Below the pieces are notes generated by a model that saw only the letters and a list, made by a program, of their open reading frames with translations, was not told the origin of the DNA and ran no database searches. From assembly GCA_030167865.1 (NCBI GenBank), contig JALAGF010004667.1, positions 1 to 39,648 on the forward strand: a stretch of DNA of 39,648 nt, given 5' to 3'. Positions 1 through 31,488 of the stretch are shown piece after piece. This DNA is from Craspedostauros australis. Its lineage: Eukaryota. A program made the position numbers and the translations under genes. Every line of letters begins with the position of its first letter. Positions within the stretch are counted from its first letter, which is position 1.

Positions 1-3000
1 CAGCTGCGCACGGAGCTTTCGCCTGTACATCCGCTTCTTCGTTTTCCTGTACATGGCGGATGCTGTCAAGCCTGTCATGTAGAAACGATCGCACACCAGA
101 ATGAATGTTTCGTTCTTGTCTCCTATGCTACGAAAAAGCTTCGCCAGTCGGTACGCATCTTCGTGTCTTTCGCCATAGTACGCCACGCAGGCCGAAGCAA
201 AGCACTCCAGCTTCAACTCAAGCTGTTGTGAAGGCTCTGGTGGATGCTGCGTTAGGTCTCTGGTTGATTGAGAATGGATTTTCGACCAATCCACCGTCTC
301 GATTCCGCTCAGAGACTGGGCGAGCCGGAGATAGGAATGGGAAACTCCATCCATCGAAGCGACCCGGTATATCCGAGACTGTTGCAGCGCGTGGCCGATT
401 CTTTTTCTCAGGTCATGTAGTGTGGAGTCCTGGAAGTAAAACACGGCGAATTGGCACTGCAACATTGTGAGACCAAGTTCAAAGTTGCCTGCCTGCATTG
501 AACGGTGGTATGCTTTCTGAGCGAAACGATCAACCTCTTTGGTCGAAAGACTGAATCGGAAGATGTATTCGTTCGCGCCCATATCTACCAGTCCGCCAAG
601 TTGTCCTCCGTGCGTCAAATCCATTATACGTTGCGCGATGTTGGCACATCGCATTGCCGAGGAGTAATCATTGAGAGGATTGTTCAATACCATTCCCAGC
701 CCAATGAAGGCGACCGCAGATGCTTCGCATATGCCGTACTTGATCGTCATCTTGACTGCTTTGCACGCTTCAAGAAGGAAAGGAATTGGATTGTTGAGTA
801 CAACCGATCGATGTCCGATTTCGCAACCGATCTGCATGGCCATATCCATGCGATAGTTATCCATCAGGGGCAACCCCAAGATCTCTTCATCCGTGTGCTT
901 CTTCAAGTACGACTTGATCTTCAACATGTCCCTCAGGATGTGCGCAACATAAAAGCGACGCGGGATCACACCCAACATTCGAGCCACGTTCACACTAAGT
1001 GACAACGACTCTGCGTGCTTGTTCTCTCGTCCCAGAGCACGCGCCATCAAGAGATACGTCTGCAGCTTCTCATCCAGCGTCACCGCCCTATCAATCACCT
1101 CATTGCCGAGCTTGTATCCAACCTCGAAGTGGCCCAGGGACAGCTCGACCTCTGCTCTCACTTGACACAGCCGAAGAGCGACGTTGTAGTGTTCGTCCCA
1201 TGGATTCCGGACACGCTTCAATGAATTGGATGCCTTGTGCAGATAGCTGGCAGCGGACGCAAGAGCAGCCATCTGCAGCGCCTTCTCTCCAACGCGCAGG
1301 TTCATGGCGACCGAGAACATGTGATCCTTGGTTTGGGCGCTGTTGAGGTGATCTGCTGCGACGAAGAGCAGTGTGTCATCTTGTGTGGAATAGTCTATTT
1401 TGGAGTAGTCTTGAGGGTCCTCCATTTGTAGTGGTTCCACGTTGGCCTCGCCACCTTGATGAGCATCTTGATGGTCGATACCAAGGCCTGTGTGATCGAT
1501 TTCTTGTGCTTGCGTGTACAGATCGAGGAGGCAATGGCCAATCCTCACCCTCAGCTTGTCCCTGACCTCGCCGTATGGAATGAGTCCGTATGCGGCCTGT
1601 TGGATGCGATCATGAGCGAACTGGTATATGTGCTTGGCAGTGGTGGACTTGATGATGAGCCGTTCGGTGATGGCCTGTTGAAGGATTGACATCACCTTGG
1701 ATTGGGTCCATGAAGATGCCCATGTGAATTGTTGAATGCTGTCAATTGTCTTGTCACCATCTGTTTGACTCGGCCCCCGATTGCTTGTGCCATTGGTACG
1801 ATTGGCATGCGCCTGTTCGCGATCCAGTACCTTGTGGAGAGTGGAGAGATCAAAACGAGCTCGGATGTATGATGCAATCGACAACACATGCTGCACATCA
1901 TCCGAGAGCTGTCTCAGCTGACTCTCAATGGCAGCAACGATGTTGTCACTGATGGGAAGATCATCATCGTCGTCGTCGCCGCCATCGTCTTGGCTGTCAC
2001 CGAAGGCGCTTGTGGTGCCGAAGCCAACTCGCGCGTTGGTGTTGGTGTTGATATTGCGGTTCTTGTTCTTCGTTGGCAGGTTCCACTCCCACATGAAGGT
2101 GATGCGGCTGAACACGATGATGTTCTTGCGCTTCAGCTCTTCGATGGCTTGGAGCGTGAAGAAGACATTGCCTTGAGTCTTCTTGTAGAGCTTCTTCGTG
2201 AGGACGAGCAGATCGGGATCATCCTGTGGACGATCGAACATGCCGGACAGCCAGTGCACTGTGTCATCCGGTGAGAGGTTGGCGATGGTGATTTGTTCGA
2301 GGTGCGGTCGTTGTTGTGGTCGCTGTTGTGACTGCTCCTGCGATTGCTCCTGCCCTTGGTTCTGCTGGTTCTGATCGCTGACGATGCGCCCTGCTTCGCT
2401 CGATCTCCCATCATTCCCATGACCACCCACAGTATCCTGATCGACGGTATCATCATGTGATACCAATCGATCCAGGAATGAGGTTCTCAACGCCGCATCA
2501 GCTTCCAGCTGGATGACCTCGTTGTTGTGAGGATCAGTGTCCTGTCGGATGGCACCAAGCAACATGAAGCTGTCCAGGTCAGGATCGGCGATCAATGTTG
2601 CAAGGAGCTCCAGTCCAGCAGATGATGACCACTGCAAGTCATCGAGGAACAGGTACACAGGCTTGGTCGGTGTGGAGATGGCCTTCATGAACTGGATGAA
2701 GATGTATTGGAGCCGATTCCATGCGTTTTGCGAGCTTCCGGCTGATGATTGGCCGTGCGCAATGGATCGCTGCGTGCTTGACATGACGGATGGTGAGATT
2801 GACATAGATCTGGATACCACGGATGCTTGATCATCCGATGGAGAGGGTATGATCGATTGCGAGATGACGGATGGAGTTGTTGTTGTGGCGTTTCCGTCGG
2901 TCAAGAGGATGGAGAGCGATGGCACCAACACAGTCAAACCTGACAGATCGAGTTGGAATCCCGTGCCTCTTCCTGTGCTTTGTGTCTTGGCTGTGCCATC

Positions 3001-3729
3001 GTCTTGGTCCGTCATCGCACTGGTGGCACCATCTCCTTGGGCACTGGTATTGCTTTCGTTGCTGAATGCAGTACCAATCAGCGACCGCATTCGATCGAGC
3101 TCTTCCGGTGGTCCGTGCTTGAGTTGCGTCGCCAGATCATCGAGAGCTTGGATGATGCCAGAGAAGGGCTCGCTGCCGCCAGTTCCTTCATCGTACTTCC
3201 CGCGCAGCACATAGCTGCATGAGCAGCATGCGTCATTGATGAACTGCTCCACCATACATGACTTGCCCGTTCCGCTTGTTCCCCACACGAGCACCGCTGG
3301 ATAGATGGGTGGTCGTTGTTGGTGGCCATCGCCATTCTTTTGTTGCGAGCCATTGCTCTTGATGATCGTAGTCTGGATGGACTTGAGCTTGCGCAGTTCT
3401 GCTGTCCTTCCGAAGAATGGTCGATCGGTCGTTCCCTCTGCCGGCTCTGTTGCGGCTACCGATGCGTTGTTGATGCTTGTACGTGCAGAGAGAGACGAAT
3501 CGTGTTGGTGGTGGAGCTTCGCCGCGTGGTTGTTGCTTGTCCCACTAGGAGCACCATCGCCGTCGGTTCCGCGAATGCTGCTGCGGAGGTTGGCGGAGTT
3601 GGGCTGGTACGTGGACGGCAGATCGACTGTATTCTGCTCCTCTTCGGTGTATCCATCATCGTAGAACTCGCGTCCGGACGTGAGGACATCGAAAGCAGCG
3701 ACAGTCTGGGATGGTCTGGTAGACTTCAT
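1..3729 (-). CDS. STAND-type P-loop ATPase (COG3899/AAA_16-like) with C-terminal TPR-like helical region, copy A; 3' end lies outside the window
   Basis: I read the minus-strand frame from ATG 3729 to base 1 and found no stop codon (1243 codons); an in-frame TGA sits 2 codons upstream of the ATG. Motifs: Walker A GTSGTGKS (3259-3282), Walker B YLFLDDLQW, TQGNVFF and FAHDRIQQAAY. Colinear with 5485..9687, so about 140 C-terminal residues are expected beyond the edge. Not in the supplied ORF track. Confidence 0.92.
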   Translation of the reverse strand, partial: MKSTRPSQTVAAFDVLTSGREFYDDGYTEEEQNTVDLPSTYQPNSANLRSSIRGTDGDGAPSGTSNNHAAKLHHQHDSSLSARTSINNASVAATEPAEGTTDRPFFGRTAELRKLKSIQTTIIKSNGSQQKNGDGHQQRPPIYPAVLVWGTSGTGKSCMVEQFINDACCSCSYVLRGKYDEGTGGSEPFSGIIQALDDLATQLKHGPPEELDRMRSLIGTAFSNESNTSAQGDGATSAMTDQDDGTAKTQSTGRGTGFQLDLSGLTVLVPSLSILLTDGNATTTTPSVISQSIIPSPSDDQASVVSRSMSISPSVMSSTQRSIAHGQSSAGSSQNAWNRLQYIFIQFMKAISTPTKPVYLFLDDLQWSSSAGLELLATLIADPDLDSFMLLGAIRQDTDPHNNEVIQLEADAALRTSFLDRLVSHDDTVDQDTVGGHGNDGRSSEAGRIVSDQNQQNQGQEQSQEQSQQRPQQRPHLEQITIANLSPDDTVHWLSGMFDRPQDDPDLLVLTKKLYKKTQGNVFFTLQAIEELKRKNIIVFSRITFMWEWNLPTKNKNRNINTNTNARVGFGTTSAFGDSQDDGGDDDDDDLPISDNIVAAIESQLRQLSDDVQHVLSIASYIRARFDLSTLHKVLDREQAHANRTNGTSNRGPSQTDGDKTIDSIQQFTWASSWTQSKVMSILQQAITERLIIKSTTAKHIYQFAHDRIQQAAYGLIPYGEVRDKLRVRIGHCLLDLYTQAQEIDHTGLGIDHQDAHQGGEANVEPLQMEDPQDYSKIDYSTQDDTLLFVAADHLNSAQTKDHMFSVAMNLRVGEKALQMAALASAASYLHKASNSLKRVRNPWDEHYNVALRLCQVRAEVELSLGHFEVGYKLGNEVIDRAVTLDEKLQTYLLMARALGRENKHAESLSLSVNVARMLGVIPRRFYVAHILRDMLKIKSYLKKHTDEEILGLPLMDNYRMDMAMQIGCEIGHRSVVLNNPIPFLLEACKAVKMTIKYGICEASAVAFIGLGMVLNNPLNDYSSAMRCANIAQRIMDLTHGGQLGGLVDMGANEYIFRFSLSTKEVDRFAQKAYHRSMQAGNFELGLTMLQCQFAVFYFQDSTLHDLRKRIGHALQQSRIYRVASMDGVSHSYLRLAQSLSGIETVDWSKIHSQSTRDLTQHPPEPSQQLELKLECFASACVAYYGERHEDAYRLAKLFRSIGDKNETFILVCDRFYMTGLTASAMYRKTKKRMYRRKLRAQL

Positions 3730-3735
3730 TGTTCA
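835..3735. repeat. Direct paralogous duplication, matching ~6755..9693
   Basis: By base comparison, 2501-2929 is identical to 8411-8839 (429 bp) and 3071-3457 is identical to 9029-9415 (387 bp). The rest is highly similar apart from in-frame indels and two unalignable loops. Confidence 0.95.
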
Positions 3736-4673
3736 ATCTGCGTCTGCTGTCTTTGTGGCAATGCGGCCATGTTCAGGTGGAGCATCCAACCTTCTGCTTG
3801 CGGGTGGAAGACCTCGATTGATCCAACTCCCAATTGGTCTGTTCACAGCGGCGCGCCCTCCTCCCGATCTATTCTTGCCTTGGTGTCAGTTTCAGAATCT
3901 CCGCGCGGGTCATCTCAAGTCGGGAACGGAGGGGTCCACGTTGGGTGATACTCCTGAGACCGAATTGGACGGAAGGTAGGGATGTGCCTGCCTGTACGAT
4001 CTCCGGGTGCTGATCGGAAGGCGTGGTTGCGCGCACCAAAAATGATTCGTGTGTGTGTCTGGGTGCTTTACTCTCCCTCTTGGTGTTGTGCTTGATACGC
4101 TTCGCCGCGAGTTGGTGTGCGGGAACTCTTTGCGCCGGTGGAACTCATCAGCGAGAAGTAAGGTGTTCATTTTCGCGCGTCCCCCAACGCAGAACCTTGA
4201 ACAGGGACAAGAACAGCGCCGCGAGGCTCTTTATGTTCTGTTGGGCATGATAGACACTCTTTCTGTCGTATCGTCGGGTCATTGATGGTCATCATTGGGT
4301 TATTGGTTAAACCGAAATCTATCAATTTGACGGCCTTTGGTGTGGACGGGCGGATGCAAAAGAGAGAATTTATCACGCCCAACTGTCACAACAATACGCT
4401 GTCACTGGAAGAGAGCCTCCGATAGATTTGCGTGTAAACACAGTCCTTTTGGATACGCGCTGACAGGACAACACAACAACTTGCAAAAAACTACGGCAGT
4501 GTGGCTGAGCGAGCGACTTGTCTTTGCAGGCGGCGGCGTGCTGTCCTTCCATCGCACATAGACACCTCATGCGATGTTTTGGTTGGTGTCCGATTTTGGA
4601 GACGGAGAGTTGTCCCAGGAAGAGAACGACGGCCAGGGCAGCGGCTCAAAATGATGTGCTTCTTCCAAATACG

Positions 4674-4716
4674 ACCCCATTCAGGGTTCGCCAATGTGCG
4701 AACCCCTGAATGGGGT
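4674..4716. repeat. Inverted repeat / potential hairpin between the two STAND genes
   Basis: ACCCCATTCAGGGTTCGC (4674-4691), loop CAATGT, then GCGAACCCCTGAATGGGGT (4698-4716): an 18-bp stem with one bulged base. Confidence 0.75.
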
Positions 4717-5484
4717 GACGCAACGCACTTCTCGCGACAGACAATCGATTCTGTTTCCTGCGCCACAGCTCTTTTGGCAAGCGCCACTTTCGGTGCGAGG
4801 GGTCTGTTTGCGAGCTCCGAGAAGTTGCAGCCTTCGGGCCTTCGTTGATGCATTTTCAAGCAATGGTTTGCGACGAGTGGGCAATGTTCTAACGATGGGC
4901 CATGGTGCCTGTCGTCGTGCTCGCAGTGTTATCGTTGCGCCAACACGGAGCTCTCTCCAGGCTGAGGACAGAAGTTGGTCCGAGTTTGCACACAAATAGA
5001 CGTCTTTGAAATTTCCAGTCGTGCAATAACTCGAAGATCTATTATCAGTCTGGCCGTCACATCGGCGAGTACTCCTATCGGTTCAGACGGTTAACAATCA
5101 GAGTTTGAACCCCTGGACAGCTCTTCTCACTCCCAACTCGCGCATGTGGACGTCCTGTCTCGACACGACCAGAGGATTCAAAACGCCGCTCGGCCGCGGG
5201 TTCTCGTGCGATCTACTGGTATGGTGCATCGTACGATCTAACATGCGCACTCTATGCAATTGTGCCACACTCGTGTTGTGGACGGCACAACCAGAGACAG
5301 CATACACCAACAGTCAATTCTATTCAGACAGGACTGTGAAAGGATCATTAACACACACTATTATGGAGATTTGCTCCACTTACAAATGCACCCAATGCGC
5401 TCTCTCTTGCCACAGACCAACAAGACTTGGAAATCCGAGCTTGACCATCCTTTCAGTCCGCCTCTACCGGTGGCCTTCTCGCTA

Positions 5485-8400
5485 TCATCGCCTCTTGCTA
5501 TTCGGCACAAACTCTTTCAGATACTGAGATCTCCTGTCTTGCATATCCTTCACTTTGGGCTGACAGCCCCATTCATCGTAGTGCCTTACCGCCTTCGTCA
5601 TGTAGTCGCTGACCGTGTCGCTTGACAACACATGGGCGGTTGGGATACTCACCTCGAACTTGGAATTTGATTGATTCAGCAGCTGCTCTTTCGTCGCATG
5701 CAGGTATTCAGCAGCAAGTTCGCATCCCAGCGCAACAAAATGCTTGTTGCCAGAGTCTTGTGCGTAGCGGATGGCCTTGTCGTATGCATCTTTGACGGCG
5801 ATGACTGGCTTGAAGGTCTTGCCTTGCTCCGCTAGAGACATGTGCTCGGCTTCCAAGAGCAATGTCATGGTTAGCAGAGTGTCTCCCATGTTGTCAATGA
5901 TGCTTCGAAAAGCAGCAACTTGCTTGGAGACGGCCCGTCTGTATTTTGCTTTCTTTGTTTGTCGGTACATTGCTGCTGATGTGATGCCCAGAAGTAGTCG
6001 ACCCATCGATGAAAGAATGAATAGTTCACTTTTCGGTCCGATCTTCTGAAACAGCCTTGTGAGTCGATGCGCCAGATTGAATTTCCTGAAGTATGTGGCA
6101 ATACTTGCAGAAGTAAAGTAGAATGGCTTTACCTCGTATATCTCACTTGGTTCCGGCATGTCTGTTTTCAGATCTCGCCAAGACTGCTGCTCAAGGGCTT
6201 CCCAATCAATCGGAACGGTCCCCGTGAGGTATTGTGTGAGAAGAAAGAAGCTGTCTGCCATGCCTCGTACTGACACGACGCGATACACTCGGAAATGGTT
6301 GAGAATACTCTGCACAGCATCTGCCAGAGAATGAAGCTCGTATCCATCGTGGTAGAGGGCGAAGCACCGACCTTGCAGATGTGCCATTCCTGTTTCAAAG
6401 TCACCTGCGCTCATTGAGACCCTGTATCCTTTGTCAAAATTCTTAATCAGATCTTCCGTCGGCAGTCTGTAGTGGTAGCTGTACATAGTCACCATCGCCT
6501 GGACTGATCCAGCGTAGTAATTGCCGTTGGTCTTTTCCAGGATCTGCAGTGCTATGTTGGCGCAACGCGCCCCCAATGCATATTCTGTCGTGGCATTGTC
6601 GTAGAACTGTCCCAAGGCTGCAAATGCAGTCGCAGAGCCTTCACATATTCCGTGCCTCAGAGTAAGCTTGATGTTCTTTGCGACATGAAGTATCCATTGT
6701 GAAATTGCGCCTGTGAGGAAGGACCTGAGTCCGAATTCGTACGTGAGGCAAGTTGCCATTTCCATTCGATAATTGTCCATCAGGGGCAATCCCAAGATCT
6801 CTGCATCCGTGTGCCTCTTCAAGTACGACTTGATCTTCCACATGTCCCTCAGGATGTGTGCCACATAAAAGCGACGTGGGATCACACCCGACATTCGAGC
6901 CACGGTTAGACTCATTGACAACGACTCTGCGTGCTTGTTCTCTCGTCCCAGAGAACGCGCCATCAAGAGATACGTCTGCAGCGTCTCATCCAGCGTCACC
7001 GCCCTATCAATCACCTCATTGCCGAGCTTGTATCCAACCTCGAAATGACCCAGGGACAGCTCGACCTCTGCTCTCGCTTGGCACAGCCGAAGAGCGACGT
7101 TGTAGTGTTCGTCCCATGGATTCCGGACACGCTTCAATGAATTGGATGCCTTGTGCAGATAGCTGGCAGCGGATGCAAGAGCGGCCATCTGCAGCGCCTT
7201 CTCTCCGACGCGAAGGTTCATGGCGACCGAGAACATGTGATCCTTGGTTTGAACGCTGTTGAGATGGTCTGCTGCGACGAAGAGCAGTGTGTCATCTTGT
7301 TGCGGCGAATGTGGATGGTATTGTGTGGAATAGTCTATTTTGGAGTAGTCTTGAGGGTCCTCCATTTGTAGTGGTTCCACGTTGGCCTTGCCACCTTCAG
7401 GAGAACCTTGATGATCACCTTGATGAGCATCTTGATGGTCGATGCCAAGGCCTGTGTGGTCGATTTCTTGTGCTTGCGTGTACAGATCGAGGAGGCAATG
7501 GCCAATCCTCACCCTCAGCTTGTCCCTGACCTCGCCGTATGGAATGAGTCCGTATGCGGCCTGTTGGATGCGATCATGAGCGAACTGGTATCTGTGCTTG
7601 GCAGTGGTGGACTTGATGATGAGCCGTTCGGTGATGGCCTGTTGAAGGATTGACATCACCTTGGATTGGGTCCATGCGGATGCGGATACGCTTGATGAGG
7701 CATGCGCCCGTTCGCGATCCAGTACCTTGTGGAGAGTGGAGAGATCAAAACGAGCTCGGATGTATGATGCAATCGACAGCACATGCTGCACATCATCTGA
7801 CAGCTGTCTCAGCTGACTCTCAATGGCAGCAACGATGTTGTCACTGATGGGAAGATCATCATCGTCGTCGTCGTCGTCATCGCCATCGCCATCGCCGCCA
7901 TCGTCTTGGCCGTCACCGAAGGCGCTGATGGTGCCGAAGCCAACTCGCGTGTTGGTGTTGACGTTGCGGTTCTTGTTCTTCGTTGGCAGGTTCCACTCCC
8001 ACATGAAGGTGATGCGGCTGAACACGATGATGTTCTTGCGCTTCAGCTCTTCGATGGCTTGGAGCGTGAAGAAGACATTGCCATGAGTCTTCTTGTAGAG
8101 CTTCTTCGTGAGGACGAGCAGATCGGGATCATCCTGTGGACGATCGAACATATCGGACAGCCAGTGCGCTGTGTCACCAAGTGAGAGGTTGGCGATGGTG
8201 ATTTGTTCGAGGTGCGGTCGTTGTTGCGGTCGCTGTTGTGACTGCTCCTGCGATTGCTCCTGCCCTTGGTTCTGCTGGTTCTGATCGCTGACGATGCGAC
8301 CTGCTTCGCTCGGTCTCCCATCATTCCCATGACCACCCACAGTATCCTTATCGACGGCATCATCATGTGATACCAATCGATCCAGGAATGAGGTTCTCAA

Positions 8401-9687
8401 CGCCGCATCTGCTTCCAGCTGGATGACCTCGTTGTTGTGAGGATCAGTGTCCTGTCGGATGGCACCAAGCAACATGAAGCTGTCCAGGTCAGGATCGGCG
8501 ATCAATGTTGCAAGGAGCTCCAGTCCAGCAGATGATGACCACTGCAAGTCATCGAGGAACAGGTACACAGGCTTGGTCGGTGTGGAGATGGCCTTCATGA
8601 ACTGGATGAAGATGTATTGGAGCCGATTCCATGCGTTTTGCGAGCTTCCGGCTGATGATTGGCCGTGCGCAATGGATCGCTGCGTGCTTGACATGACGGA
8701 TGGTGAGATTGACATAGATCTGGATACCACGGATGCTTGATCATCCGATGGAGAGGGTATGATCGATTGCGAGATGACGGATGGAGTTGTTGTTGTGGCG
8801 TTTCCGTCGGTCAAGAGGATGGAGAGCGATGGCACCAACGCAGTCAAACCTGACAGCTCGAGTCGGAATCCCGTGCCTCTTCCTGAGCTTGATCTGTTGG
8901 TGTTGACACTATCGCCGCTATTAGCGTGAGTGTGGTTACCAGGGTGTGTGATGTTGTCTGGTTTGGTACCATCATTGCTGTCACCGTACCGTGTACCGTT
9001 GGTTCCTGTTTGACGACCACTGAATTCGGTACCAATCAGCGACCGCATTCGATCGAGCTCTTCCGGTGGTCCGTGCTTGAGTTGCGTCGCCAGATCATCG
9101 AGAGCTTGGATGATGCCAGAGAAGGGCTCGCTGCCGCCAGTTCCTTCATCGTACTTCCCGCGCAGCACATAGCTGCATGAGCAGCATGCGTCATTGATGA
9201 ACTGCTCCACCATACATGACTTGCCCGTTCCGCTTGTTCCCCACACGAGCACCGCTGGATAGATGGGTGGTCGTTGTTGGTGGCCATCGCCATTCTTTTG
9301 TTGCGAGCCATTGCTCTTGATGATCGTAGTCTGGATGGACTTGAGCTTGCGCAGTTCTGCTGTCCTTCCGAAGAATGGTCGATCGGTCGTTCCCTCTGCC
9401 GGCTCTGTTGCGGCTGCCGATGCGTTGTTGATGCTTGTACGTGCAGAGAGGGATGAATCGTGTTGGTGGCGGAGCTTCGCCGCGTGGTTGTTGTTGTTTC
9501 CACCAAGAGCACCATCGCCGTCGGTTCCGCGAATGCTGCTGCGGAGGTTGGCGGAGTTGGGCTGGTATGTGGACGGCAGATCGACTGCATTCTGCTCCTC
9601 CTCGGTGTATCCATCATCGTAGAACTCGCGTCCGGACGTGAGGACATCGAAAGCAGCGACAGTCTGGGATGGTCTGGTAGACTTCAT
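5485..9687 (-). CDS. STAND-type P-loop ATPase (COG3899/AAA_16-like) with C-terminal TPR-like helical region, copy B, 1400 aa
   Basis: FFGRTAEL entry motif, Walker A GTSGTGKS, 'GKYDE...EPFS', Walker B YLFLDDLQWS, THGNVFF, YQFAHDRIQQAAY and C-terminal 'HYDEWGCQPKV'. These match the ATPase and helical parts of the 'trifunctional kinase/ATPase/histidine kinase' family. No kinase, GAF or HisKA domain is visible. Confidence 0.92.
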   Translation of the reverse strand: MKSTRPSQTVAAFDVLTSGREFYDDGYTEEEQNAVDLPSTYQPNSANLRSSIRGTDGDGALGGNNNNHAAKLRHQHDSSLSARTSINNASAAATEPAEGTTDRPFFGRTAELRKLKSIQTTIIKSNGSQQKNGDGHQQRPPIYPAVLVWGTSGTGKSCMVEQFINDACCSCSYVLRGKYDEGTGGSEPFSGIIQALDDLATQLKHGPPEELDRMRSLIGTEFSGRQTGTNGTRYGDSNDGTKPDNITHPGNHTHANSGDSVNTNRSSSGRGTGFRLELSGLTALVPSLSILLTDGNATTTTPSVISQSIIPSPSDDQASVVSRSMSISPSVMSSTQRSIAHGQSSAGSSQNAWNRLQYIFIQFMKAISTPTKPVYLFLDDLQWSSSAGLELLATLIADPDLDSFMLLGAIRQDTDPHNNEVIQLEADAALRTSFLDRLVSHDDAVDKDTVGGHGNDGRPSEAGRIVSDQNQQNQGQEQSQEQSQQRPQQRPHLEQITIANLSLGDTAHWLSDMFDRPQDDPDLLVLTKKLYKKTHGNVFFTLQAIEELKRKNIIVFSRITFMWEWNLPTKNKNRNVNTNTRVGFGTISAFGDGQDDGGDGDGDDDDDDDDDLPISDNIVAAIESQLRQLSDDVQHVLSIASYIRARFDLSTLHKVLDRERAHASSSVSASAWTQSKVMSILQQAITERLIIKSTTAKHRYQFAHDRIQQAAYGLIPYGEVRDKLRVRIGHCLLDLYTQAQEIDHTGLGIDHQDAHQGDHQGSPEGGKANVEPLQMEDPQDYSKIDYSTQYHPHSPQQDDTLLFVAADHLNSVQTKDHMFSVAMNLRVGEKALQMAALASAASYLHKASNSLKRVRNPWDEHYNVALRLCQARAEVELSLGHFEVGYKLGNEVIDRAVTLDETLQTYLLMARSLGRENKHAESLSMSLTVARMSGVIPRRFYVAHILRDMWKIKSYLKRHTDAEILGLPLMDNYRMEMATCLTYEFGLRSFLTGAISQWILHVAKNIKLTLRHGICEGSATAFAALGQFYDNATTEYALGARCANIALQILEKTNGNYYAGSVQAMVTMYSYHYRLPTEDLIKNFDKGYRVSMSAGDFETGMAHLQGRCFALYHDGYELHSLADAVQSILNHFRVYRVVSVRGMADSFFLLTQYLTGTVPIDWEALEQQSWRDLKTDMPEPSEIYEVKPFYFTSASIATYFRKFNLAHRLTRLFQKIGPKSELFILSSMGRLLLGITSAAMYRQTKKAKYRRAVSKQVAAFRSIIDNMGDTLLTMTLLLEAEHMSLAEQGKTFKPVIAVKDAYDKAIRYAQDSGNKHFVALGCELAAEYLHATKEQLLNQSNSKFEVSIPTAHVLSSDTVSDYMTKAVRHYDEWGCQPKVKDMQDRRSQYLKEFVPNSKRR

Positions 9688-11183
9688 TGTTCACCCGTTC
9701 AGCGTTGTTGTCCATTTCCTTTACGCTATTGTTGGTTCCAGCGTACCCACTGTTGTGCTTGCGTTTGACTTGACCGGCGTTGGCGTCTTCGTTGTGGATT
9801 GGGCTGTGGGTCTCCTCTTTGAGAAACAGGTCGGGGAGTTGCGTCAATCCATCTCACGCTTGCGGCAGTCCAGGGCACAAGGTGCGAGCGATGTGCCAAT
9901 GTTGGAGACCACCCCAAAACGAACATCAGAAACGAAATCATTGGCGTGGGTTTGTGCTTCGGTCATCTCCGCCGCGCGCTCCGACCCGCGCATTGCGGTC
10001 ATGGACGACAGAAAGCAAGTCGACAAGTACGATCACTCTTTGAATGAAACATAAAGGGAGTGCTGGACACATTTATTGTCACAATCTGTTTATAGTAGCG
10101 CTTCCATGCGGACATCGTCGCCTTTGTTTCCTCTCCAGGTTTATGCCCCTCCAAGTTCCAGACGCAGACACAAATATGACTGAATACGCGTAGGTCGTAC
10201 AACGACATTAGTCGATCTAGTCGAGATGACCGAAGATGGTCTCGAATCCGAATTGAGTCGATTGTCGATTAATCATGAAAGTCCAATCCCATTTCAGTCT
10301 TGTGAAAAGGTCATCAAGCATGGCCAATCAGACTCAAGATACCAAATGTTGTTTTCGGTCATTTGTGGCGCCCGAATCCAACAATTCAATTTTTTGGATG
10401 ATTCATGACACCTCGTTCGCTCGGGTGCGCGGCCAAGTCAGTCTTGGCGCAGCACATGTCGTCGCACGAGCTCCACTCGATGATGCTGTTCAACAAGATG
10501 CCAGTCGAATGACTCGTTATGCCGCCAACGCTTCGCTTTGCCGATACGACTACACACGGAGAGGAGAACACCGACAGCATCGAAAAGATACCGCCCATCG
10601 CCGAACGAAGTTTGGGGTGTGTCTCTGCGGAGACAAAGACCCACGGATCACGCCGACACACTCGTCAAGGGCGAGTTGGATGAACAACACCTCAATTGTG
10701 GCACTCACAGAGATAGCCGTAGGAGTACTCTCCCACCCGTTGAACCCATCCCAGTTTAATGGTCGCACGATCGCAAGGCACTCGTGTTGGAATCTCTCTT
10801 CGACTGACAACGAAACCACAAGGGTACCTGTGAATAGGCATACGATTGACTCGACAAGCCACCAACGGCATCTTTTTGTCAGCAGGTGCAAGGCGCAACC
10901 GCAGTTCCGCATCATCTGAAGGATACCACATCTGTGCGTAGAGTTAAGGGATCACGCCGTCGTTCTGACCGGTGTTTCAGCCTCTCACGCCGTCGCCATC
11001 GCGCGAGCTGGGTAGCATCTCATCGACACATTGATCGCCATTGTGCGCATCGCTGAAGGTCTTGATACAGCACCGTCGCCTTTCAAGGCTTCGATTCCAA
11101 TATCGCTCACACTTTGCCATCGGTGCCAGAAAGAACCGTGGAGTGCTTCTGCAGAGTCCCATACTGGCGTTCATTCAGACAAG

Positions 11184-14100
11184 ATGGCTTTCCGAATGGC
11201 CCAAAGGGCCAAGGCGGAGTGCGTCAAGCTCGAGCAGGAGGAAGAGACGTACACCGTCCCCCTGGTTTCCAATGCTGACAACGCGGGTGACGATTCCAGT
11301 CTTCCCAAGGATCTTTACGAATTCTTGGGAGACACCAAACGAACATGGAAGCTCAAAGCAGGTCAACGCGTGTCCATCCTCCACGAGAAGGCCAACGTCA
11401 GGGCATTCCACAAGTCGCTGGTCCAGGAATCGCAGTCCGTCACGGAGCAGGAGTTTTGGTATCGATACTTGTACCGTTGCGACGTCAATCGCATCATTGC
11501 AAACTTGAAGGCAGCAAAGAATCAGGGCACCATTCCCACCAGCAACAATAGCAACGGCAACGGCGAAAGTGTCGCCAGTCAGAACAAAAGCAAGGCAGCG
11601 CCCGTTGCCAAAGCTGCCGCTCCGTCAACGCCAAAGGCCAAATCAAGGGCTCCTGCAAAATTGGCGCAAGCCACGCAGCCAACAGTTTCGTCATCGTTAC
11701 CCTCCACATCTGGAGCATCTTCGTCCGGAGTGCCAGCTTCGTCTTCCTCACAATCCAACCAGATGTCTAGTGCGAGCTTCATGAACAATGCAAAACATCA
11801 GGCGGATCGGTTGCGGCAGGTCGAATCCACCTACACGGAGCCACTCCCGATGGCCGATGAAGTCGACAATCGCATGGCGCGGGAGATTTCAGACTTTCAC
11901 ACCGACTTCGATCGATCGTGGAACATGAGGCAAAGCCAACGCGAGCAGACGCTGCAGCAATACGAAAAGTCGGTCGGGAAGTTCCATCACCAGCTCGTGG
12001 TGGAAGCGCAGGCGATCAGTGAGAAGGATTTCTGGAAGCGATATCAGTTTCGCTGCGATGAACGGCGGATATTCCGACAGACGCAGCGCAACCAGATTGG
12101 CAGCAGCTCGAACAGATCGTCCAAGTCGAAAAAGAAGATGAAGCAGCAGTCTCGGGATTCCATCACCACCGATCCCGTTGTCACGCCATCTTCGAAAACG
12201 GACGCTGCTACCGCTGCTTCAGTGAAGGAATCGACGGCATCGGCCAATTCCTCCGACAACGCCAAATCCTCAGTATCTTCGATCAAGCGTCAACAACGTC
12301 ATCAGCAGAACCACAGCAGTCATTATCCTTCCGACATGCCAGTGGTATCAACGGGCGATTCTATCCAGGAACGGTTGAAGCGATGGGGACGCAAGGGTTC
12401 AACGGAGAACAAGGTATCAGCACCTACGCCGACATCCGCGCCTGCCCCTGCGCCTACCGCAACCACAACACCCATCACGAAGGCTAAATCCACCTCCTCC
12501 TCAGTCTCCGCGGGGTCCAAAAAAGCGACAGCACCGCAGCCGATCGCAACAACACAACGATCACCGAAGAAGCCGGACAAGCGGCAACAGGAGGAAGCGC
12601 CCGAACCAGCCCAAACAGCTTCGCAGTCGAAGGCTTCGGATGGAAGTGGCAGCAAGGATGGATCATCCAGCTCCAAGAAAGCCACAACACCAGTCGGCAC
12701 AAGCCTTAAGGATCGACTTAAATTGTGGGGTAAGGTGGCCACGAAATCAAAGCCTTCACCAGCGTCCACCCCAGCGCCGGCTCCAGAACCTACCCCTGCC
12801 CCTACCCCTACTCCAGTGGTAGCTCCTCCGCCGAGGGCAGCGGTTGCTCCACACTCCGTGTTTGCGAAGTCGCCTTCCCAGTCTTCGGTCGTCTCAGTGT
12901 TGACATTGGATTCTCAGTTCCCCATCAAGACGATCGTGACAACTTCGGACCATGTGTCGCATCCACCACCTCCTGTGACTGAGGAAGATGAAAGCACGCC
13001 ATCTACTGACGCTGGAAGGCAATGCATCGTGCCGGATGCTGGCCCATCGGTGCAGCGCGTTCCATCACCCAAAATATCAGGATCGTCCGTGCGTGATCGT
13101 CTCAAGAAGTGGGGCAAGAAAACAGCCGCGGTGTCTCCTCCACCACCGTTGTACAAGAAGAAATCCGCCGTTGCTTCTTCTACGGCTCCTACTTCTGCCA
13201 ACACATCTGGCGATGCGGGTGCCGCAATACCTGTTCAGAAAGAGGTTTCGGCGGTGAAGACTCCCACGGTTGTTGAGAAGCCCGTTGCGACCATGACATC
13301 TTCGCAGGCGGTGAATCGATCACCAGTCAAAGCCACAGTGGTCACACCAACGCCGACGAAACCAGCAACAAGCGTGGCATCCCCAACGTCAGCCCGCGCA
13401 AGTCACAGCGGAAGCAGTACCGGTAGCGGATTCAAGGGCTCGGTCAAGAAGAAGAAGGCGACATTGCTGAAGCAGGAAGCTCAACCAGAGGCGCAGCTTC
13501 GACGAGGCACAGAAGCCACGTACACCACCCCGTTGCCAAAGCACGGATCGTTGGATGATCCCGAGGAATTGCGTGAATTGAGCGACTTCGTGTTCAGCTT
13601 CAATCGCGAGTACCGCAAGCAAACTCCGGAGGAGCGATCCGCTCTCTTGGAGCAGCACCCCGACACGCTTGGGAAGTTTTACCATCAGCTGGTGGTCGAT
13701 GACAAGGAGGTGACCGAGAAGCAGTTTTGGGAACGGTACAGCTACAGATGCAACGAGGAGAGGATACTCCGAGAGTTGCAACGACAGCAACGTCGGCGGA
13801 CGCTCTCGCAAAAGATCACGAAGCAACGTCGATTGATATACAACGAACGAGGCGAAGTCATTGCCGAGGCTGAGAACGATGAACCAGAAGTTGTGGTTGA
13901 CTTGGCAGGAACGCACATCAGTCGGAGCGCACCTGTGACTGACCTTCCCGCCACCACCACGCCCATCAAGGATCGCTACAAGGCGAAGGAGCCGGCGCCA
14001 CAGGAACCGATCAGCAGTAAGCCTTCGGTCAAACAGCATCCGAAGGTCAAGACTGCAACGACGATTGACACATCCGATCATGCGTCAGATGGAAACAAGC

Positions 14101-17100
14101 AAGGCGCGCCTGAACTTTCCGTCACGTCACCTCGCGCAGTCGCAAAGGCGCGTGCGAAGGATCAATTCAGTGTTCGATCGAACAAGTACGCTCTGCCATC
14201 CAGGATCATCAGCCAGCGCCGCCTCGTAGAGCAGCAGCCAGCGCAAGAAAACGTCGGATCGCCGCCTGCTGGGACCCAGCAGACAAAGCCTCCGTCAGTC
14301 GTGGACAGAGCAGGAGCAGATACTGCTGCAAAGAAAGCCGCGCAGAAATCCAGCATTCCGTCAGATGCCGCTGTTGTTGTGCTCATCTCTTCGATGCCGA
14401 GCAAATTGGCGCAAAGGACGAATCAGGACCGCACGATGACCATGCTCCGAGCAGCTGAGGTGGAACCAGTAGTCGTGGACAGCGTGAAGGGGGCAGACTT
14501 CAACAAGCGCAACACTTTATTTGCTATCAGCGATATGCAAGGCATCTACCCGCAGGTGTTCGTGACACAGAAATCCAACCTGAAGGCCTTCAAGCCAAAG
14601 CATATTCAGTTCTTGGGTGACTTCAACACAATCGAATACCTCAGCGGTGGTGGCAACCTGGCCGATGAGATCGGCAAGAAGGCGCTGATTGTCTCCAAGC
14701 AAGCCGAAGGCGCCGAGATCGCTTCATTCCTTGACAGCGACAAGAAGCTCATCGCTCTGTACTCCAAGACGAAGGGCAACCAAGCGCAATCCGCAAACCA
14801 GTTCCGTGCTGATGCCATCCTGAAGGACCTCGGTGTGAAGCCCGAGGTGGTGGACGGATCTGATCCCATGCACAAGCAGCGGCGGGACCGTCTATTTGCC
14901 ATCAGCGGCCTTCCCAACAAGTACCCGCAATTCTTCGTGCAGCACAGCAAGGAAATGACCGTTTTCTTCGGCGATTACGACACCCTGAAGTACTTCAGCC
15001 ACAGCGGAAAGCTGGCAAAGAGCCTCAACGTCCAGCTCGACGTGTCTCAGCACTCGCAGTACGATGCCAGTCAGGTATCGAACACAGAAGACGACATCGT
15101 CCTTGTGGACAAGGCCACGGCGATGGAATGGTACGAGCAAACCAAGAAATCTGCAACCGATGAAGCACAAGCAAGACGAACTCCGATGGATGTGGTCGAT
15201 GCTGACTCTGGCCAGAAGCAAAGAGCTGACGAAATCGAAGACATCACTGAGATCGATGACACCGAGGCTGATAAGCACGTGGATACAGGAGCAGATACCG
15301 TTGCCCCTGCAGTCGAGCGTGGGCTACAGGCGGATGCACCGGCGGAGACGGTCAACTCTGACGAATCAGAGAAGGTGGACGCTGGCAAGGTCGAGGAGGT
15401 GGATGATGCTGGCATCGAAGAGACGACGGATGAAGCGCGAGTCGATGATGATTCCGAAGAGATCATCGAAGAGGTGATCGAAGAATTTGAAGAAGAGGTA
15501 GTCGAAGAGGTCATTGAGGAAGTTATCGAAGAGGTCATCGAAGATGACGCGCTCGAAATCAGCCCGATCGACGCAGATGATCAAGATAAACCAATCGATG
15601 ACAACGCCGAAGGTGCCGCTGAACAGGATGATGAGCCACCAGCGGAAGTTCCAACCGACGAAGACGGCCAGGAAGATACACAGGAGCAGCAAACGACGAC
15701 ACGGACGATTGACGTCGAACCTGGACCAAAATCGGAGGATGCACTTGTGGACGATGGTGAGGAACAAGAAGCTGCAGCAGCAGCAGAATCAGTCGATCAA
15801 GATCTTGCAGAAATGCAACCACAAGAAGAACTTTCCGAAAAGGAATCGTCACAGGAAGGTGCAGACGATACTGCCGATGCGCTTGATGCAGTGCCAGCAG
15901 CAATCGAGGATGCTGCGCTACCATCGAACGAGGAGGGAGCCAAAGACATCCAGGATGAGAAGGCTAATGAAGGTGTCGATGTCTACCAAGGAATCGAATC
16001 GGACATCCCTGCCGACGAAGATCCCCACGCACCATCTCCGCCTCCACGACCCTCTGACTCAGATGTGGCTCCCGTAGATCCGCAGACCGAAGAAGCCCTG
16101 GAAACGGCCGCACCTCATGCTGTTGCTGAGGAAGCGGAGGAGCCCGTGAATGAGCCAGACGCGGCCGTTGCCGATGGCGCAGCCGAAAAAACTCCATTGG
16201 ATTCCACACCACAAGCCGATGCTGCGAAGGATGATGACCACCAACCAAGTACATCTGGTGATGAGCGAACGGAAACCGTCGAGGATGATGCTGAATCCGT
16301 GGAGTCTGCTGAAGTCATTGAATCTGCTGAAGCTGAGACGAAAGCTGTCAGCGCCGGAGAGGCAAAGGAGCATGAAACAGCCGCCAACGAGGTCTCACCA
16401 ATAACTGACGTTGCTGATGTCGATGTCGATCCATCTGAAGAAATTGATCATTCTCCAGATGTTGATGGCAGTGCGCTTGTCGAGGCACCCGCAGCCGAGG
16501 TACCAACGGATGAGGCATCAACAGATCAGGCAGAATCTGATACTGGCAGCCCAACTGGAGCTCAGCAAGCTGATGAGGCCCACTCCCAAGCCCTTGCATC
16601 AGCTGACAACGCTCAGGATGATGTCAGCCCTGAGAGGGTCGATGAGGGCGTGGAAGGCGAACCTCAAATCAATACAACGTCTGAAGATGTCGACGAGCCG
16701 CGTGAAATCGATGCCGAATCTGCAGAACTCGAGACTGCAGAAGGCCCAGAAGACGAAGATCGAGCAGGAGCCAAGACAGCCGCTGCAATCGCCGCAGGAG
16801 CAGTCGTCGCAGGTACTGTGGCCGCTGTTGTCGTAGCATCCAATGAGCCTGATGCTGAACAAGACGATGACGCAGCAGAATCAGCCGAACCAGCCGCCAA
16901 CGTCGATGCTGAACAAGACGAGGTCGAATCAAGTCAAAGTGAGCAACCGGAGGCAGAACAATCAAAGCCAGCTGAGGTGATAGAAGCGGAAGTCATCAAT
17001 GAAGAATCTGTTGAGGAGGATAAGGAAGTACCGGTTACCGATAAGGCTGCGCAGCCAAGTATGGACGCTGACAAATCGTCGGAAGCCCACGGTGAAGCAT

Positions 17101-26066: not shown

Positions 26067-27330
26067 GTTGGCGAATGTGCGTTTGTCTTTATTGCTGCTC
26101 CATGTAGAGCAGTTGTGACTGCCTCTGTGGTTGTTGTTGCTGCTGTTGTCGCTGCTATTGTCGATGTCGTGATTGGTGGGATGTTTGGCGTGATTGTTGT
26201 GATGGCGCTGATTGCTCTGGATGCATTTCCGCTTTGGTTGCCACGATGGTCGATACTGGCTCCAACGCTGCGATCTGCTGCTGACAATGACTATGTTGCT
26301 ATTGACAATGCTGCTCCTGATGTTTCTGCTACAAGCACCTGTAGCTGTTCCCTTGCTCGTTGTTCGCTGTTCGTTGTCTCTGCTCCCTGTGGTCTCGAAT
26401 GTCGCTTGCTACCGCCGCCTGCTACCGTCGCCATCAAGGCTGCTGCCACGCATGACAGATTCGGAACAAGGACCGCGCAGACCCCGAATTGCCGCCTCCT
26501 CGCGAATTTTGGAACAAACGAATTGGAGCACAACCATCCGCCATGATACGCCATGATACGCCGCGACGCGCCAGTGGTGGTGGTCAGACTTCAGAACAAT
26601 CCCAACCCTGCCCACGCAATTAGAATCCAATCATCGGACAGGTTGGCACGTGGATTGGGGCCACAACTGCAACCGCAATACTTCGCAAGAAGGATACATG
26701 TCGATTTCTTGCGTTCGCCCTTGATGACTTCCTCACCGCAGCGGTCATCAAGGAGGCTTAACGGCGACTTGATGGACGTGGGCGTCGCAACCCAGGTTGA
26801 TTTTGGAACAATGCTCGCGCAATTTTGTTCCTTTGGCGTGTGGTAGCGTCTATTCATTTTCTCCGTCGTGTTCATGTGGACGTTAAGTTGCCAGTATCCA
26901 TTCGCGTGTGTGAAGAAAAAGCGGCATGGCATTTCTTGTTCTGACGTCACCACCGATATAGCTATATTCTATTTTTTGTTTTCCGTGACTCCCAAAAGAT
27001 ATGAACAAACGGAAGATCTGTGTTGACAGCCAACATTGCGGCATAACAGGAACACAAACACCGACGCAGGACGTTCGCATCCCGTGACACGTTTGTGATT
27101 GTGCCTATTCGTTGATGCCTCCGTGTTCTCCAACAGCGTTCGCAGACAAACCTGATGTGTGGGTTTGTGAGGACACAAGTGTGTGCAGTGCGAATGCGAA
27201 TGCGGATACAGCCACAACCGCAATACCATGCACCATAGAGAACGACCAGAAGAGACAAACGATCACAGAGTATAATATTCTACAATACAATACTACGCAT
27301 AGTCGTACACACCAACAACAGCTGCGCGCC

Positions 27331-28896: not shown

Positions 28897-29152
28897 TCCA
28901 GAAGTATGATGCAACAACAACGCCCACACCAACAATACGAATAATACTAATAATAGTTGGAGTACAAGCGAATTAGACAATGGAATTGTTCTTCACTATC
29001 TTTGTTTTTCGTCTTCATGGCAGCAATGCCGTCTGGATTTGCAAAATGATCGTTCTTGCCTTAGTCTCCTGCTACCAATGCAACCAATGTGAGTACTCCA
29101 TGGTGATCTAACATGCTCATCCATACGAATACGTGCGAGTACTCATGCGTGC

Positions 29153-31078: not shown

Positions 31079-31440
31079 GATGGTGGATGCGGAGGGCGTA
31101 ATGGGTGTGATGGCTCTGCAAGAGAGATGGAATGCAATCCTTCTCGGCTTGGTCGGAGGAGCATGTTGTGGGAATGTTGTGAGTGAGTGCGAAGCAGGTG
31201 TTGTCGTCCTCGTCTGTCGTCATCACCATGATGGACATTTGTTCGTTTGTGTGACTTCTGAATCTTGAGTGCGATCAGTCATGATTCGGTCGGTAGAAAG
31301 TCGACTAATACGATAACTCGAATTCTCTTTTTCGTGATCAGTCGTGTACAAACAACATGTGCATGCTCTCATTCCGCTTGTCCAGTTCGCGGACACCGCG
31401 CACCTCTCCCCAACGTATCTTGCTCACATTTTTCATCACG

Positions 31441-31488
31441 ACATCGCACAACATCACACAACATCGCACAATACCACACGACACACAA
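31441..31488. repeat. Degenerate 10-bp minisatellite (ACATCGCACA)n in a divergent intergenic region
   Basis: acatcgcaca acatcacaca acatcgcaca ataccacacg acacacaa. Confidence 0.6.

Follow-up and report, generated by a model that had tools for sequence, protein, structure and literature searches.

ATPases of the STAND type that combine AAA_16 with TPR are a known kind of protein, and partial gene conversion between tandem paralogues belongs to textbook evolution. Walker A, Walker B (hhhhDD) and a GRxxE-type motif were reportedly put forward as STAND-defining by Leipe et al. in 2004. Proteins of the MalT/PH0952 type comprise a P-loop with Walker A and B, a helical domain, a winged helix and a TPR (SUPR) solenoid, and an AAA_16 domain with TPR_CHK1 occurs in bacterial trifunctional Ser/Thr kinase/ATP-binding/sensor histidine kinase and PknK-like proteins. 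The NLR and R-gene clusters of plants and fungi, which undergo interlocus gene conversion, hold tandem STAND mosaics that pair a homogenised module with a diverged repeat module. For the MalT/PH0952 type, a working scheme of the STAND/TPR switch is outlined in PMC6468293 and PMC4381067.

The two genes described here, A and B, belong to the diatom Craspedostauros australis and lie in a window of 39,648 nt, the whole stretch of DNA that was analysed. They are intron-free tandem paralogues, neighbours placed head to tail on the minus strand. Both had been claimed to be open reading frames in the initial annotation, and this was verified (Table 1). The last 139 codons of A are situated left of the window, and the missing end is given by P0126, a database protein of 389 aa that is identical to A in all 250 residues from 994 to 1243. 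Direct repeats in the window fall into seven families with a spacing of 5895-5964 nt, and blastn found no third copy elsewhere in it. The DNA upstream of A and B is unrelated between the copies, starting 6 nt before the ATG, which on sequence grounds suggests that the two genes are driven by different promoters. Mobile elements were considered as the driver of the duplication and rejected, since none of the nine spacer and other ORFs matched Pfam and no inverted repeats were found in the window. There were no tRNA genes in the window.

Table 1. Positions of the features of genes A and B in the window.
Feature	Position	Strand	Description and basis
Copy A CDS	1..3729	(-)	ORF, codons 1-1243 of 1382; open at the left end of the window
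Copy B CDS	5485..9687	(-)	complete ORF, 1400 codons and stop
Homogenised segment, copy A	838..3735	(-)	ATG-6 nt to ~codon 964; blastn, boundary alignments, dS
Homogenised segment, copy B	6754..9693	(-)	ATG-6 nt to ~codon 978; blastn, boundary alignments, dS
429-nt perfect tract	A 2501-2929 / B 8411-8839	(-)	spans Ser-rich insert and Walker B
387-nt perfect tract	A 3071-3457 / B 9029-9415	(-)	spans GRxxEL motif and Walker A
Diverged indel-rich island	8800..9030	(-)	B codons 220-296, separating the perfect tracts; disordered insert of the ATPase domain
A-type TPR tail, anciently diverged	1..837	(-)	continues left of the window
B-type TPR tail, anciently diverged	5488..6753	(-)	pS 0.77, dN 0.64
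ATPase core of B	7288..9405	(-)	residues 95-800: P-loop alpha/beta, helical domain, beta-hairpin, winged helix; 5 disordered inserts
TPR-like alpha-solenoid of B	5488..7287	(-)	residues 801-1400, ~30 helices; AlphaFold2
N-terminal FYDDGY	B 9607..9624; A 3649-3666	(-)	in ~100-residue disordered N-terminus
Walker A GTSGTGKS	B 9217..9240; A 3259-3282	(-)	translations
Walker B LFLDDLQW	B 8539..8562; A 2629-2652	(-)	translations; FLDDLQW is family consensus
FAHDRIQQAAY at winged helix	B 7552..7584; A 1588-1620	(-)	family consensus FAHDRIQxAA
Possible 3′ UTR of B	5364..5484	(-)	downstream of B stop; also covered by a contig from public run X1

The 5′ parts of the two genes align by blastn in three collinear blocks (A 839-1719 with B 6755-7683 at 90.9%, A 1804-2980 with B 7699-8890 at 95.6% and A 3062-3735 with B 9020-9693 at 97.8%). 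The near-identity over the N-terminal ~960 codons that had been noticed earlier, with its two perfect tracts, was reproduced down to the exact tract lengths, and it runs to about codon 964 in A and 978 in B. The 138 differences over 2805 aligned nt are clustered, as a perfect tract of 429 nt arose in 0 of 20,000 random placements of the differences, and each of the 7 indel junctions keeps the frame. The island between the perfect tracts has a dS of 0.48 and a dN of 0.36 (61 aligned codons); 51 differences fall there within one 150-nt bin, and the model has a pLDDT below 50. The 3′ border is sharp, identity being lost over ~10 nt at about A 838 and B 6754, close to the abrupt collapse first placed at ~835 and ~6755. 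The 5′ border is also sharp and coincides with the beginning of A/B similarity 6 nt upstream of the ATG. Beyond either border of the high-identity patch the DNA is paralogous but diverged, or unrelated.

Divergence along the pair is far from uniform. Across the 935 codons compared in the 5′ part NG86 dS is 0.092, with values of 0 at codons 121-219, 0.01 at 297-430, 0.17 at 801-974 and 0.35 at 935-974, and dN/dS in this part is 0.17-0.42. The 3′ part is saturated at synonymous sites and its dN/dS is not estimable, because pS is 0.77. The tails of A and B form an ungapped protein alignment in BLASTP with 106 of 282 residues identical (37.6%) and a nucleotide identity of ~50%; per 40-codon window the identities are 43-56% for nucleotides and 33-56% for amino acids. 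Identity in the first 125 tail residues (45 of 125) agrees with the earlier count of about one third (42 of 120), and the peptides quoted for both copies are present in the translations. GC3 is 0.62-0.63 in the 5′ part versus 0.56-0.58 in the tail, and the weak/strong differences split 32 versus 39, giving no clear signal of GC-biased conversion. Conservation across the family is lowest in the tail, where the mean column identity in 47 distant rows is 0.27 versus 0.34, and among close relatives the tail changes at roughly double the rate of the region before it. Of the 32 tail columns with at least 80% conservation in the 47 distant relatives, B retains 24 and A 23. Taken with the open reading frames, the in-frame indels and the dN/dS of the 5′ part, these retained columns make both A and B look functional.

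AAA_16 (PF13191) is the only Pfam family above its cut-off in either protein, at 65.7 bits in B and 67.4 bits in A against a gathering cut-off of 32.6. The model of the B core has a pLDDT of 73, with 313 residues at 90 or above, and its Foldseek and VIA matches are ORC/Cdc6, Apaf-1, CED-4, PH0952 (6mfv) and Avs3. VIA places ORC/Cdc6 first (Z 13.7-12) and generic AAA+ within 2 Z units, so that STAND and ORC/Cdc6-type folds are not separated by these scores (Z 13.7-11.5). Like the Walker A and Walker B motifs, the GRxxE-type motif FFGRTAELRKL upstream is present in both copies and in the family consensus. The histidine of FAHDRIQQAAY presumably has the role of the STAND winged-helix histidine. 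NCBIfam yielded a single, sub-threshold match (TOMM kinase/cyclase, 44 bits versus 706). The initial proposal of STAND ATPases is supported in part, by the AAA_16 P-loop, the Walker motifs, the GRxxE-type motif and the C-terminal repeats; as to an effector domain, Pfam detects none at either end of A or B, and the N-terminus holds only the ~100 disordered residues with FYDDGY.

The C-terminus, suspected from the letters to be a helical repeat, is predicted to form an all-alpha TPR solenoid (pLDDT 93.9, pTM 0.90), and all its top Foldseek matches are TPR superhelices. Its best structural matches in VIA are peptide-sensing TPR receptors of the Rap/NprR/PlcR kind (Rap 4gyo_A, Z 18.0, rmsd 3.9, 269 residues; RapI, Z 17.1), although the likeness is one of fold only, at 7-12% identity, and helical repeats often reach such Z. 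MalT domain III (1hz4) matches the tail model of B with Z 17.0 and an rmsd of 4.9 over 333 of 366 residues. In the models the layout resembles that of the MalT/PH0952 type described above. Unlike those proteins, A and B are eukaryotic, lack a DNA-binding or other effector domain and contain five long disordered inserts, and they have no sequence similarity to proteins of solved structure, with nothing usable in a phmmer search of the PDB (best E 0.46). The helical array also bears on the initial view of an identical switch with different sensors: the 5′ part is homogenised and the tail diverged, as proposed, but the break lies ~175 residues inside the array, away from the ATPase/repeat border.

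The only named relatives among the database matches are the bacterial trifunctional kinase and PknK-like proteins, and the core is alike from the P-loop to a C-terminal W-G-x-x-x-K-V. Residues 146-1390 of B are collinear with residues 2-975 of P0011, a cyanobacterial AAA_16-TPR_CHK1-GAF-histidine kinase protein (21% identity, E 8e-30). In contrast to the bacterial proteins, A, B and their nearest relatives are without kinase, GAF, HisKA and HATPase_c. TPR_CHK1 (PF25503) was matched in the bacterial P0011, P0005 and P0091 but not in A, B, P0003 or P0004, even though B is collinear over the TPR region of P0011. The family of A and B is apparently large and mostly of diatoms; its members stand alone and are related to the ATPase/TPR core found in bacterial kinase-GAF-histidine-kinase proteins. 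It counts 88 representatives at E<=1e-30, and a metagenome scan with B gave 15 pattern matches and 0 relatives. AAA_16 is above cut-off in P0003, P0004 and 35 of the 36 relatives scanned, and it is the sole such family in 33 of the 36; the exceptions are P0127 with none, P0161 with NACHT in addition and P0269 with a kinase model. C-terminal tails after the TPR are of 83 residues in the median and 295 at most (97 proteins). Among the 81 family rows with a Walker A, 11 carry FYDDGY at a distance of 56-165 residues before that motif, compared with 1 of 118 rows of the bacterial type. What makes the family noteworthy is that it is apparently diatom-centred, has no recognisable output domain and carries a short conserved N-terminal motif; no paper on this diatom AAA_16/TPR family was found in the literature.

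The history of the pair was approached by separate trees of the tail (B 1008-1395) and of the region preceding it (B 801-974), built in a careful run on 11 rows, and the two parts proved incongruent. In the tail, A groups with P0123 (100/100), a 581-residue fragment outside the window, with B as their sister (99/98) and P0003 next; an (A, B) clade is rejected (AU p=0.00015). In the preceding region A groups with B (95/92), and the AU test rejects (A, P0123) at p=0.037, which is marginal for 176 columns. A 42-row quick tree of this short region gave an AU p of 0.60, its free search having missed a better tree. Identities follow the same pattern: between the preceding region and the tail they fall from 94% to 38% for A and B, from 74% to 56% for A and P0123 and from 64% to 31% for A and P0003. 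P0123 may represent either an orthologue or a paralogue not yet seen; the search for longer versions found no full-length P0123 at E<=1e-40, which is weak evidence. Because the parts differ in age by dS and their trees are incongruent, the history that fits best is an old duplication whose 5′ 2.9 kb were homogenised afterwards. The probable explanation is that these tandem STAND-type AAA_16/TPR genes arose by an old duplication and that a 5′ patch was afterwards subjected to non-crossover interlocus gene conversion. The duplication would predate the split of the A tail from its closest foreign relative, P0123. Conversion, probably in several events of different ages, would then have overwritten the segment that begins 6 nt before the ATG and ends near codon 964/978, and promoters, spacers and the last ~420 codons would have kept the old divergence. 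The tract may end where similarity becomes too low, that is, at the faster-evolving distal TPR part, at the unrelated 5′ flank and at the disordered island.

Recurrent conversion and a recent domain swap had both been named at the outset, and the dS profile and the trees favour the former over the latter. A swap would have required a recent duplication of the gene or of its 5′ 2.9 kb, after which one copy received its 3′ part from a distant third paralogue by ectopic recombination. This is unlikely: the sharp 3′ border would suit it and the large family could supply donor copies, but the tail of B stands as closest sister to the A and P0123 tails instead of being a remote member of the family, no relation is seen between the 5′ flanks up to ATG-6, unlike those of a recent segmental duplication, and the range of dS in the 5′ part together with the unconverted island suggests several events rather than one. 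Unequal crossing-over was rejected as the origin, since the 5′ flank of the hybrid would be homologous to the flank of the other copy, and the flanks are unrelated.

Two further explanations dispense with conversion. Scarcely conceivable is a single recent duplication after which the 5′ part came under extreme purifying selection and the tail changed very fast by adaptation. The low conservation of the tail throughout the family points that way; however, synonymous sites agree with replacement sites, disordered low-complexity linkers are identical too, and the A tail is nearer to P0123 than to B. It is also very improbable that assembly produced the identical halves, as a chimera or by collapsing or expanding a repeat. 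The perfect tracts exceed short reads, and neither junction is bridged by independent reads among the contigs of run X1, which are absent over 818-5363 and 6443-11100, a gap that is uninformative on expression or junctions. Against this, the 138 differing sites and the in-frame indel junctions require two real sequences, both ORFs are intact, P0126 reproduces the tail of A, and X1 contigs carry both tails with 0 differences, although X1 may be the assembly's own sample. A switch within a perfect tract would at most exchange segments and not create the pattern. Partial conversion after an old duplication makes A and B a very clean, datable example of the process, with the limits of the patch at ATG-6 and inside the TPR array. 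Such a mosaic is not a rule of the family, because two other tandem arrays in it, L005 (2 copies) and L006 (3 copies), are uniformly 75-82% identical.

By analogy with STAND proteins of the MalT/PH0952 type, the products of A and B may at rest be ADP-bound and autoinhibited; binding of a ligand or partner to the TPR part would open the protein, and oligomerisation with ATP would come next. One switch would then be common to A and B, with the distal sensor surface and the promoters differing. A STAND switch with different sensors is a plausible reading, and if the proteins are ligand-gated switches, the pair is a natural chimera experiment of one core with two distal sensor halves.

The initial annotation went further and saw a candidate for a diversifying array of NLR-like immune or environmental receptors. 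Here selection would keep the switch identical, e.g. for co-oligomerisation, and drive the sensors apart, a view compatible with conversion and in our judgement quite unlikely. The STAND-like anatomy with a TPR tail, the faster tail, the expansion of the family with its tandem arrays elsewhere and the differing promoters would all fit. On the other hand, NACHT and NB-ARC are absent from A and B at E<=0.1 (nSTAND6 reaches 13.3 bits versus 27.7), and NACHT is above its 26.7-bit cut-off in only one of the 36 relatives (P0161, 29.7 bits) and sub-threshold in P0135 and P0146. Pfam detects no LRR family in A or B, there is no effector domain, and known anti-phage defence families (PADLOC-DB 2.0) gave 0 matches for all 4 proteins at E<=0.01. 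NLR/R-gene clusters differ accordingly in having NB-ARC or NACHT for AAA_16, LRR or WD40 for TPR and effector domains, and two copies are in view here. Furthermore, saturation leaves no estimate of dN/dS for the tail, the family-conserved tail columns are mostly kept in both copies as for a constrained scaffold, identity at synonymous sites reflects conversion and not selection on the protein, and the literature search returned no such diatom family. One may speculate, as an outright improbable case, that this effector-less AAA_16/TPR family with its conserved G-R-x-FYDDGY is the diatom counterpart of the NLR repertoire. A and B would then be a sensor-swapped pair in one hetero-oligomer, the core and N-terminal signalling motif being kept interchangeable and the distal TPR halves reading different ligands under separate promoters.

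The possible 3′ UTR of B lies within an X1 contig (record 4) that covers 5364-6121 with 0 differences, X1 being only guessed as RNA. A farnesyltransferase beta is also encoded in the window, and its named best matches are from diatoms only.

The near-identical 5′ part and the diverged tail of the neighbouring AAA_16/TPR ATPase genes, copies A and B, differ in age. The genes lie head to tail, and blastn returned three collinear blocks shared by A and B and no further copy in the window beyond these. Seven families of direct repeats with spacings of 5895-5964 nt link the two units, and the repeat search of the window found no inverted repeats. Similarity starts 6 nt 5′ of the ATG, beyond which the DNA is unrelated, and stops near A 838 / B 6754 (codon ~964 / ~978), where identity drops from ~90% to ~45-50% within ~10 nt. 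Past this boundary the proteins align without gaps, with 106 of 282 residues identical (37.6%). The 138 differences over the 2805 aligned nt of the 5′ part are strongly clustered; none of 20,000 random placements yielded tracts as long as the two perfect ones observed, between which an indel-rich, diverged island is situated. The initial annotation had described the near-identical 5′ part, the perfect tracts and the abrupt collapse, and this description proved exact.

Coordinates of the features discussed, with dS and dN/dS between A and B estimated by the Nei-Gojobori method for regions given in B codons
Feature	Position	Strand	Measure
Copy A reading frame	1..3729	-	1243 codons, runs off left window end
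Copy B reading frame	5485..9687	-	1400 codons, complete
blastn block 1	A 839-1719 / B 6755-7683	-	90.9%
blastn block 2	A 1804-2980 / B 7699-8890	-	95.6%
blastn block 3	A 3062-3735 / B 9020-9693	-	97.8%
Perfect tract, 429 nt	A 2501-2929 / B 8411-8839	-
Perfect tract, 387 nt	A 3071-3457 / B 9029-9415	-
FYDDGY motif	A 3649-3666 / B 9607-9624	-
Giant reading frame	11031-24035	+	4334 codons uninterrupted, first ATG codon 52
5′ part overall	935 codons		dS 0.092, dN/dS 0.42
Region of 5′ part	B codons 121-219		dS 0
Island	B codons 220-296		dS 0.48
Region of 5′ part	B codons 297-430		dS 0.01
Region of 5′ part	B codons 431-974		dN/dS 0.17-0.32
Region of 5′ part	B codons 801-974		dS 0.17
Region of 5′ part	B codons 935-974		dS 0.35
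Tail			dS saturated (pS 0.77), dN 0.64
Metagenome locus L005	6440-12877		two head-to-tail copies
Metagenome locus L006	1-8709		three head-to-tail copies

Since selection on a protein does not act at its synonymous sites, purifying selection cannot account for the identical 5′ part, nor can fast adaptive change account for the tail. The pair of two ages that had been proposed is borne out by dS, which is 0-0.35 in the 5′ part and saturated in the tail. The phylogenies point in the same direction. A word-based search returned only two close relatives, the database proteins P0003 (1400 aa, 40% identity, 89% coverage) and P0004, and an exhaustive HMMER search seeded with B 801-1400 recovered 3617 relatives (E<=0.001), 88 of them with E<=1e-30; these relatives include P0123, a 581-residue fragment. 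In the tail, A and P0123 are 56% identical, B and P0123 35%, and A and B 38%. Careful trees of 11 rows were built separately for the tail and for the 174 residues before the break. The tail tree joined A with P0123 (100/100) and placed B as sister to both (99/98) with P0003 outside, and the AU test rejected an A-B clade (p=0.00015). Just ahead of the break, A and B came out as sisters (95/92), and the AU test rejected the grouping of A with P0123 (p=0.037). A larger quick tree of this short region was uninformative. Among close relatives the tail diverges only about twice as much as the pre-break region (44% vs 26% for A and P0123, 69% vs 36% for A and P0003); for A and B the values are 62% and 6%. 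Trees and divergence therefore give an order in which the split from the P0003 lineage was followed by the duplication giving A and B, then by the separation of A's tail from that of P0123, and finally by homogenisation of the 5′ part. The evolutionary interpretation in the initial annotation is thus largely right, with respect to both the dS contrast and the incongruent trees.

On either side the identical segment is bounded by DNA that is unrelated or of old divergence. A single unequal crossover would have brought the 5′ flank of one copy along; the flanks are unrelated, and this mechanism is therefore rejected. Such a bounded patch is what non-crossover gene conversion, or a double crossover, characteristically leaves. 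A dS that ranges from 0 to 0.35 and climbs towards the 3′ edge, and an island that has survived, argue for several conversion events with different end points. The tracts end at the unrelated 5′ flank, at the disordered, indel-rich insert and in the TPR part that is least conserved family-wide (mean column identity among 47 distant rows 0.27 vs 0.34). These are the places at which similarity is expected to be lowest, and such end points would fit homology-limited conversion for which no selection is needed. No clear GC-bias signal was seen, and no mobile-element reading frames were seen in the spacers. Partial interlocus gene conversion between tandem paralogues of STAND type is a known phenomenon, here met in an uncharacterised diatom family on which a literature search found nothing.

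A metagenome scan identified eight loci of the subfamily resembling the database protein P0128, all from one metagenome. Two of these loci are multi-copy (L005 and L006), and their copies share a uniform 75-82% identity that extends over an upstream stretch and the tails; two others (L002 and L004) carry one copy each with ~10 kb of copy-free DNA downstream. Tandem duplication is therefore a habit of the family, and the sharp mosaic is particular to A and B. The reading frames of the multi-copy loci are split into two, suggesting an intron or a frameshift, whereas the genes in the window are intron-free.

Both copies look functional since their reading frames are open, every indel between them is in frame, and conserved tail columns are kept (24 by B and 23 by A of the 32 that are strongly conserved). 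The 389-residue database protein P0126 equals A residues 994-1243 at 250/250 positions and continues for 139 residues more, which gives a full-length A protein of 1382 residues. Both tails are also present without difference in contigs (records of 663 and 758 nt) of one public run, the kind of which was guessed and which may be the assembly's own sample.

Both proteins match Pfam AAA_16 well above the cut-off and carry Walker A (GTSGTGKS), Walker B (LFLDDLQW), an upstream FFGRTAELRKL, GNVFF and FAHDRIQQAAY, all of which are family-consensus features. The model of B 95-800 (pLDDT 73; 313 residues >=90) comprises a five-stranded P-loop domain, a helical domain, a beta-hairpin and a winged helix, broken up by five disordered inserts. 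Foldseek matched it to ORC/Cdc6, archaeal ATPases, Apaf-1, CED-4, Avs3, the STAND-TPR protein PH0952 (6mfv) and plant resistosomes, and in VIA-align ORC/Cdc6 ranked top (Z 13.7-12), followed closely by generic AAA+ proteins. The predicted core is accordingly AAA+/STAND-like, and structure alone does not separate the two clades. The anticipated helical-repeat C-terminus was recovered as a predicted TPR superhelix: B 801-1400 was modelled with ~30 helices (pLDDT 93.9, pTM 0.90), the top Foldseek matches were all TPR superhelices, and VIA was led by Rap receptors (Z 18.0, 17.1), with MalT domain III (1hz4) at Z 17.0 over 333/366 residues. The proposed division into an NTPase half and a sensor half is plausible, but the break does not coincide with the ATPase/repeat border; it falls inside the TPR array, after the first seven helices and a ~40-residue linker. 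STAND-TPR proteins have an 'arm' (PMC6468293), to which the first helical block of B may correspond; the alignment with MalT domain III begins at model residue 8, and the register of such repeats may slip.

The other rows of the word-based search are long bacterial-type proteins, named at source trifunctional Ser/Thr kinase / ATP-binding / sensor histidine kinase, or PknK. In one such protein the AAA_16-TPR_CHK1 core is collinear with B as far as a shared C-terminal W-G...K-V motif. The exhaustive search shows the nearest relatives to be stand-alone forms: of its 150 best representatives, 97 cover the region, and their C-terminal tails are 83 residues long in the median and at most 295. Among 36 relatives scanned, AAA_16 was found in 35, P0161 also passed the NACHT cut-off, and three had kinase matches, of which only the PK_Tyr_Ser-Thr match of P0269 reached the cut-off. 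An Atlas query with P0128 gave clusters automatically named 'Orc1-like AAA ATPase domain-containing protein', in which most of the members that have a record belong to Bacillariophyta. By eye, a C-terminal acidic stretch followed by a motif of the type D-[DE]-[IV]-S-[VC]-L-[ST] was seen in P0124, P0127, P0130 and P0004, and this motif is absent in A, B and P0003.

The motif G-R/V-x-FYDDGY occurs in 11 of 81 family rows with Walker A, 56-165 residues upstream of the P-loop, and in 1 of 118 bacterial-type rows. Besides A and B it is carried by P0003, P0004, P0128, P0130, P0133, P0149, P0167, P0175 and P0185, always within a disordered stretch, and it is kept among members only ~25% identical. 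It may be an output or docking element of these effector-less ATPases. The working scheme of STAND proteins, as outlined in PMC4381067 and PMC6468293, probably applies to A and B: an ADP-bound closed core would be kept shut by the helical array at rest, and a ligand or partner at the TPR part would free it, after which something would be brought together by ATP-dependent oligomerisation, perhaps via the N-terminal motif, as an effector domain is lacking. The NLR-like immune receptor envisaged in the initial annotation was not upheld, in that Pfam detected no NACHT/NB-ARC, LRR or effector domain in A or B and PADLOC matched no known defence family. Nothing supports a link of the locus to immunity, and the functional label is hypothetical.

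The window is eukaryotic and intron-poor, and the neighbours of the pair include a giant reading frame with a BSD domain, an MFS transporter, farnesyltransferase beta, a nucleotide-sugar transferase, an EGF protein and a PANTS-like protein. The named best matches of farnesyltransferase beta are diatoms only (43-49% identity), the best unnamed match reaching 57%. The giant reading frame, divergently transcribed from copy B, carries its BSD domain close to the N-terminus (E 1.6e-07), is rich in Ala, Glu and Asp (15%, 15%, 10%) and contains 4.3 copies of a 285-nt (95-residue) tandem repeat at 21318-22519; its product resembles a very large, acidic protein of low complexity. The other neighbours listed, at 24417-38859, are ordinary eukaryotic genes for housekeeping or membrane functions. 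The GC3 of the ATPase pair (0.56-0.63) is far below that of these genes (0.69-0.77), and this may point to weak codon bias in the pair or to its low expression.
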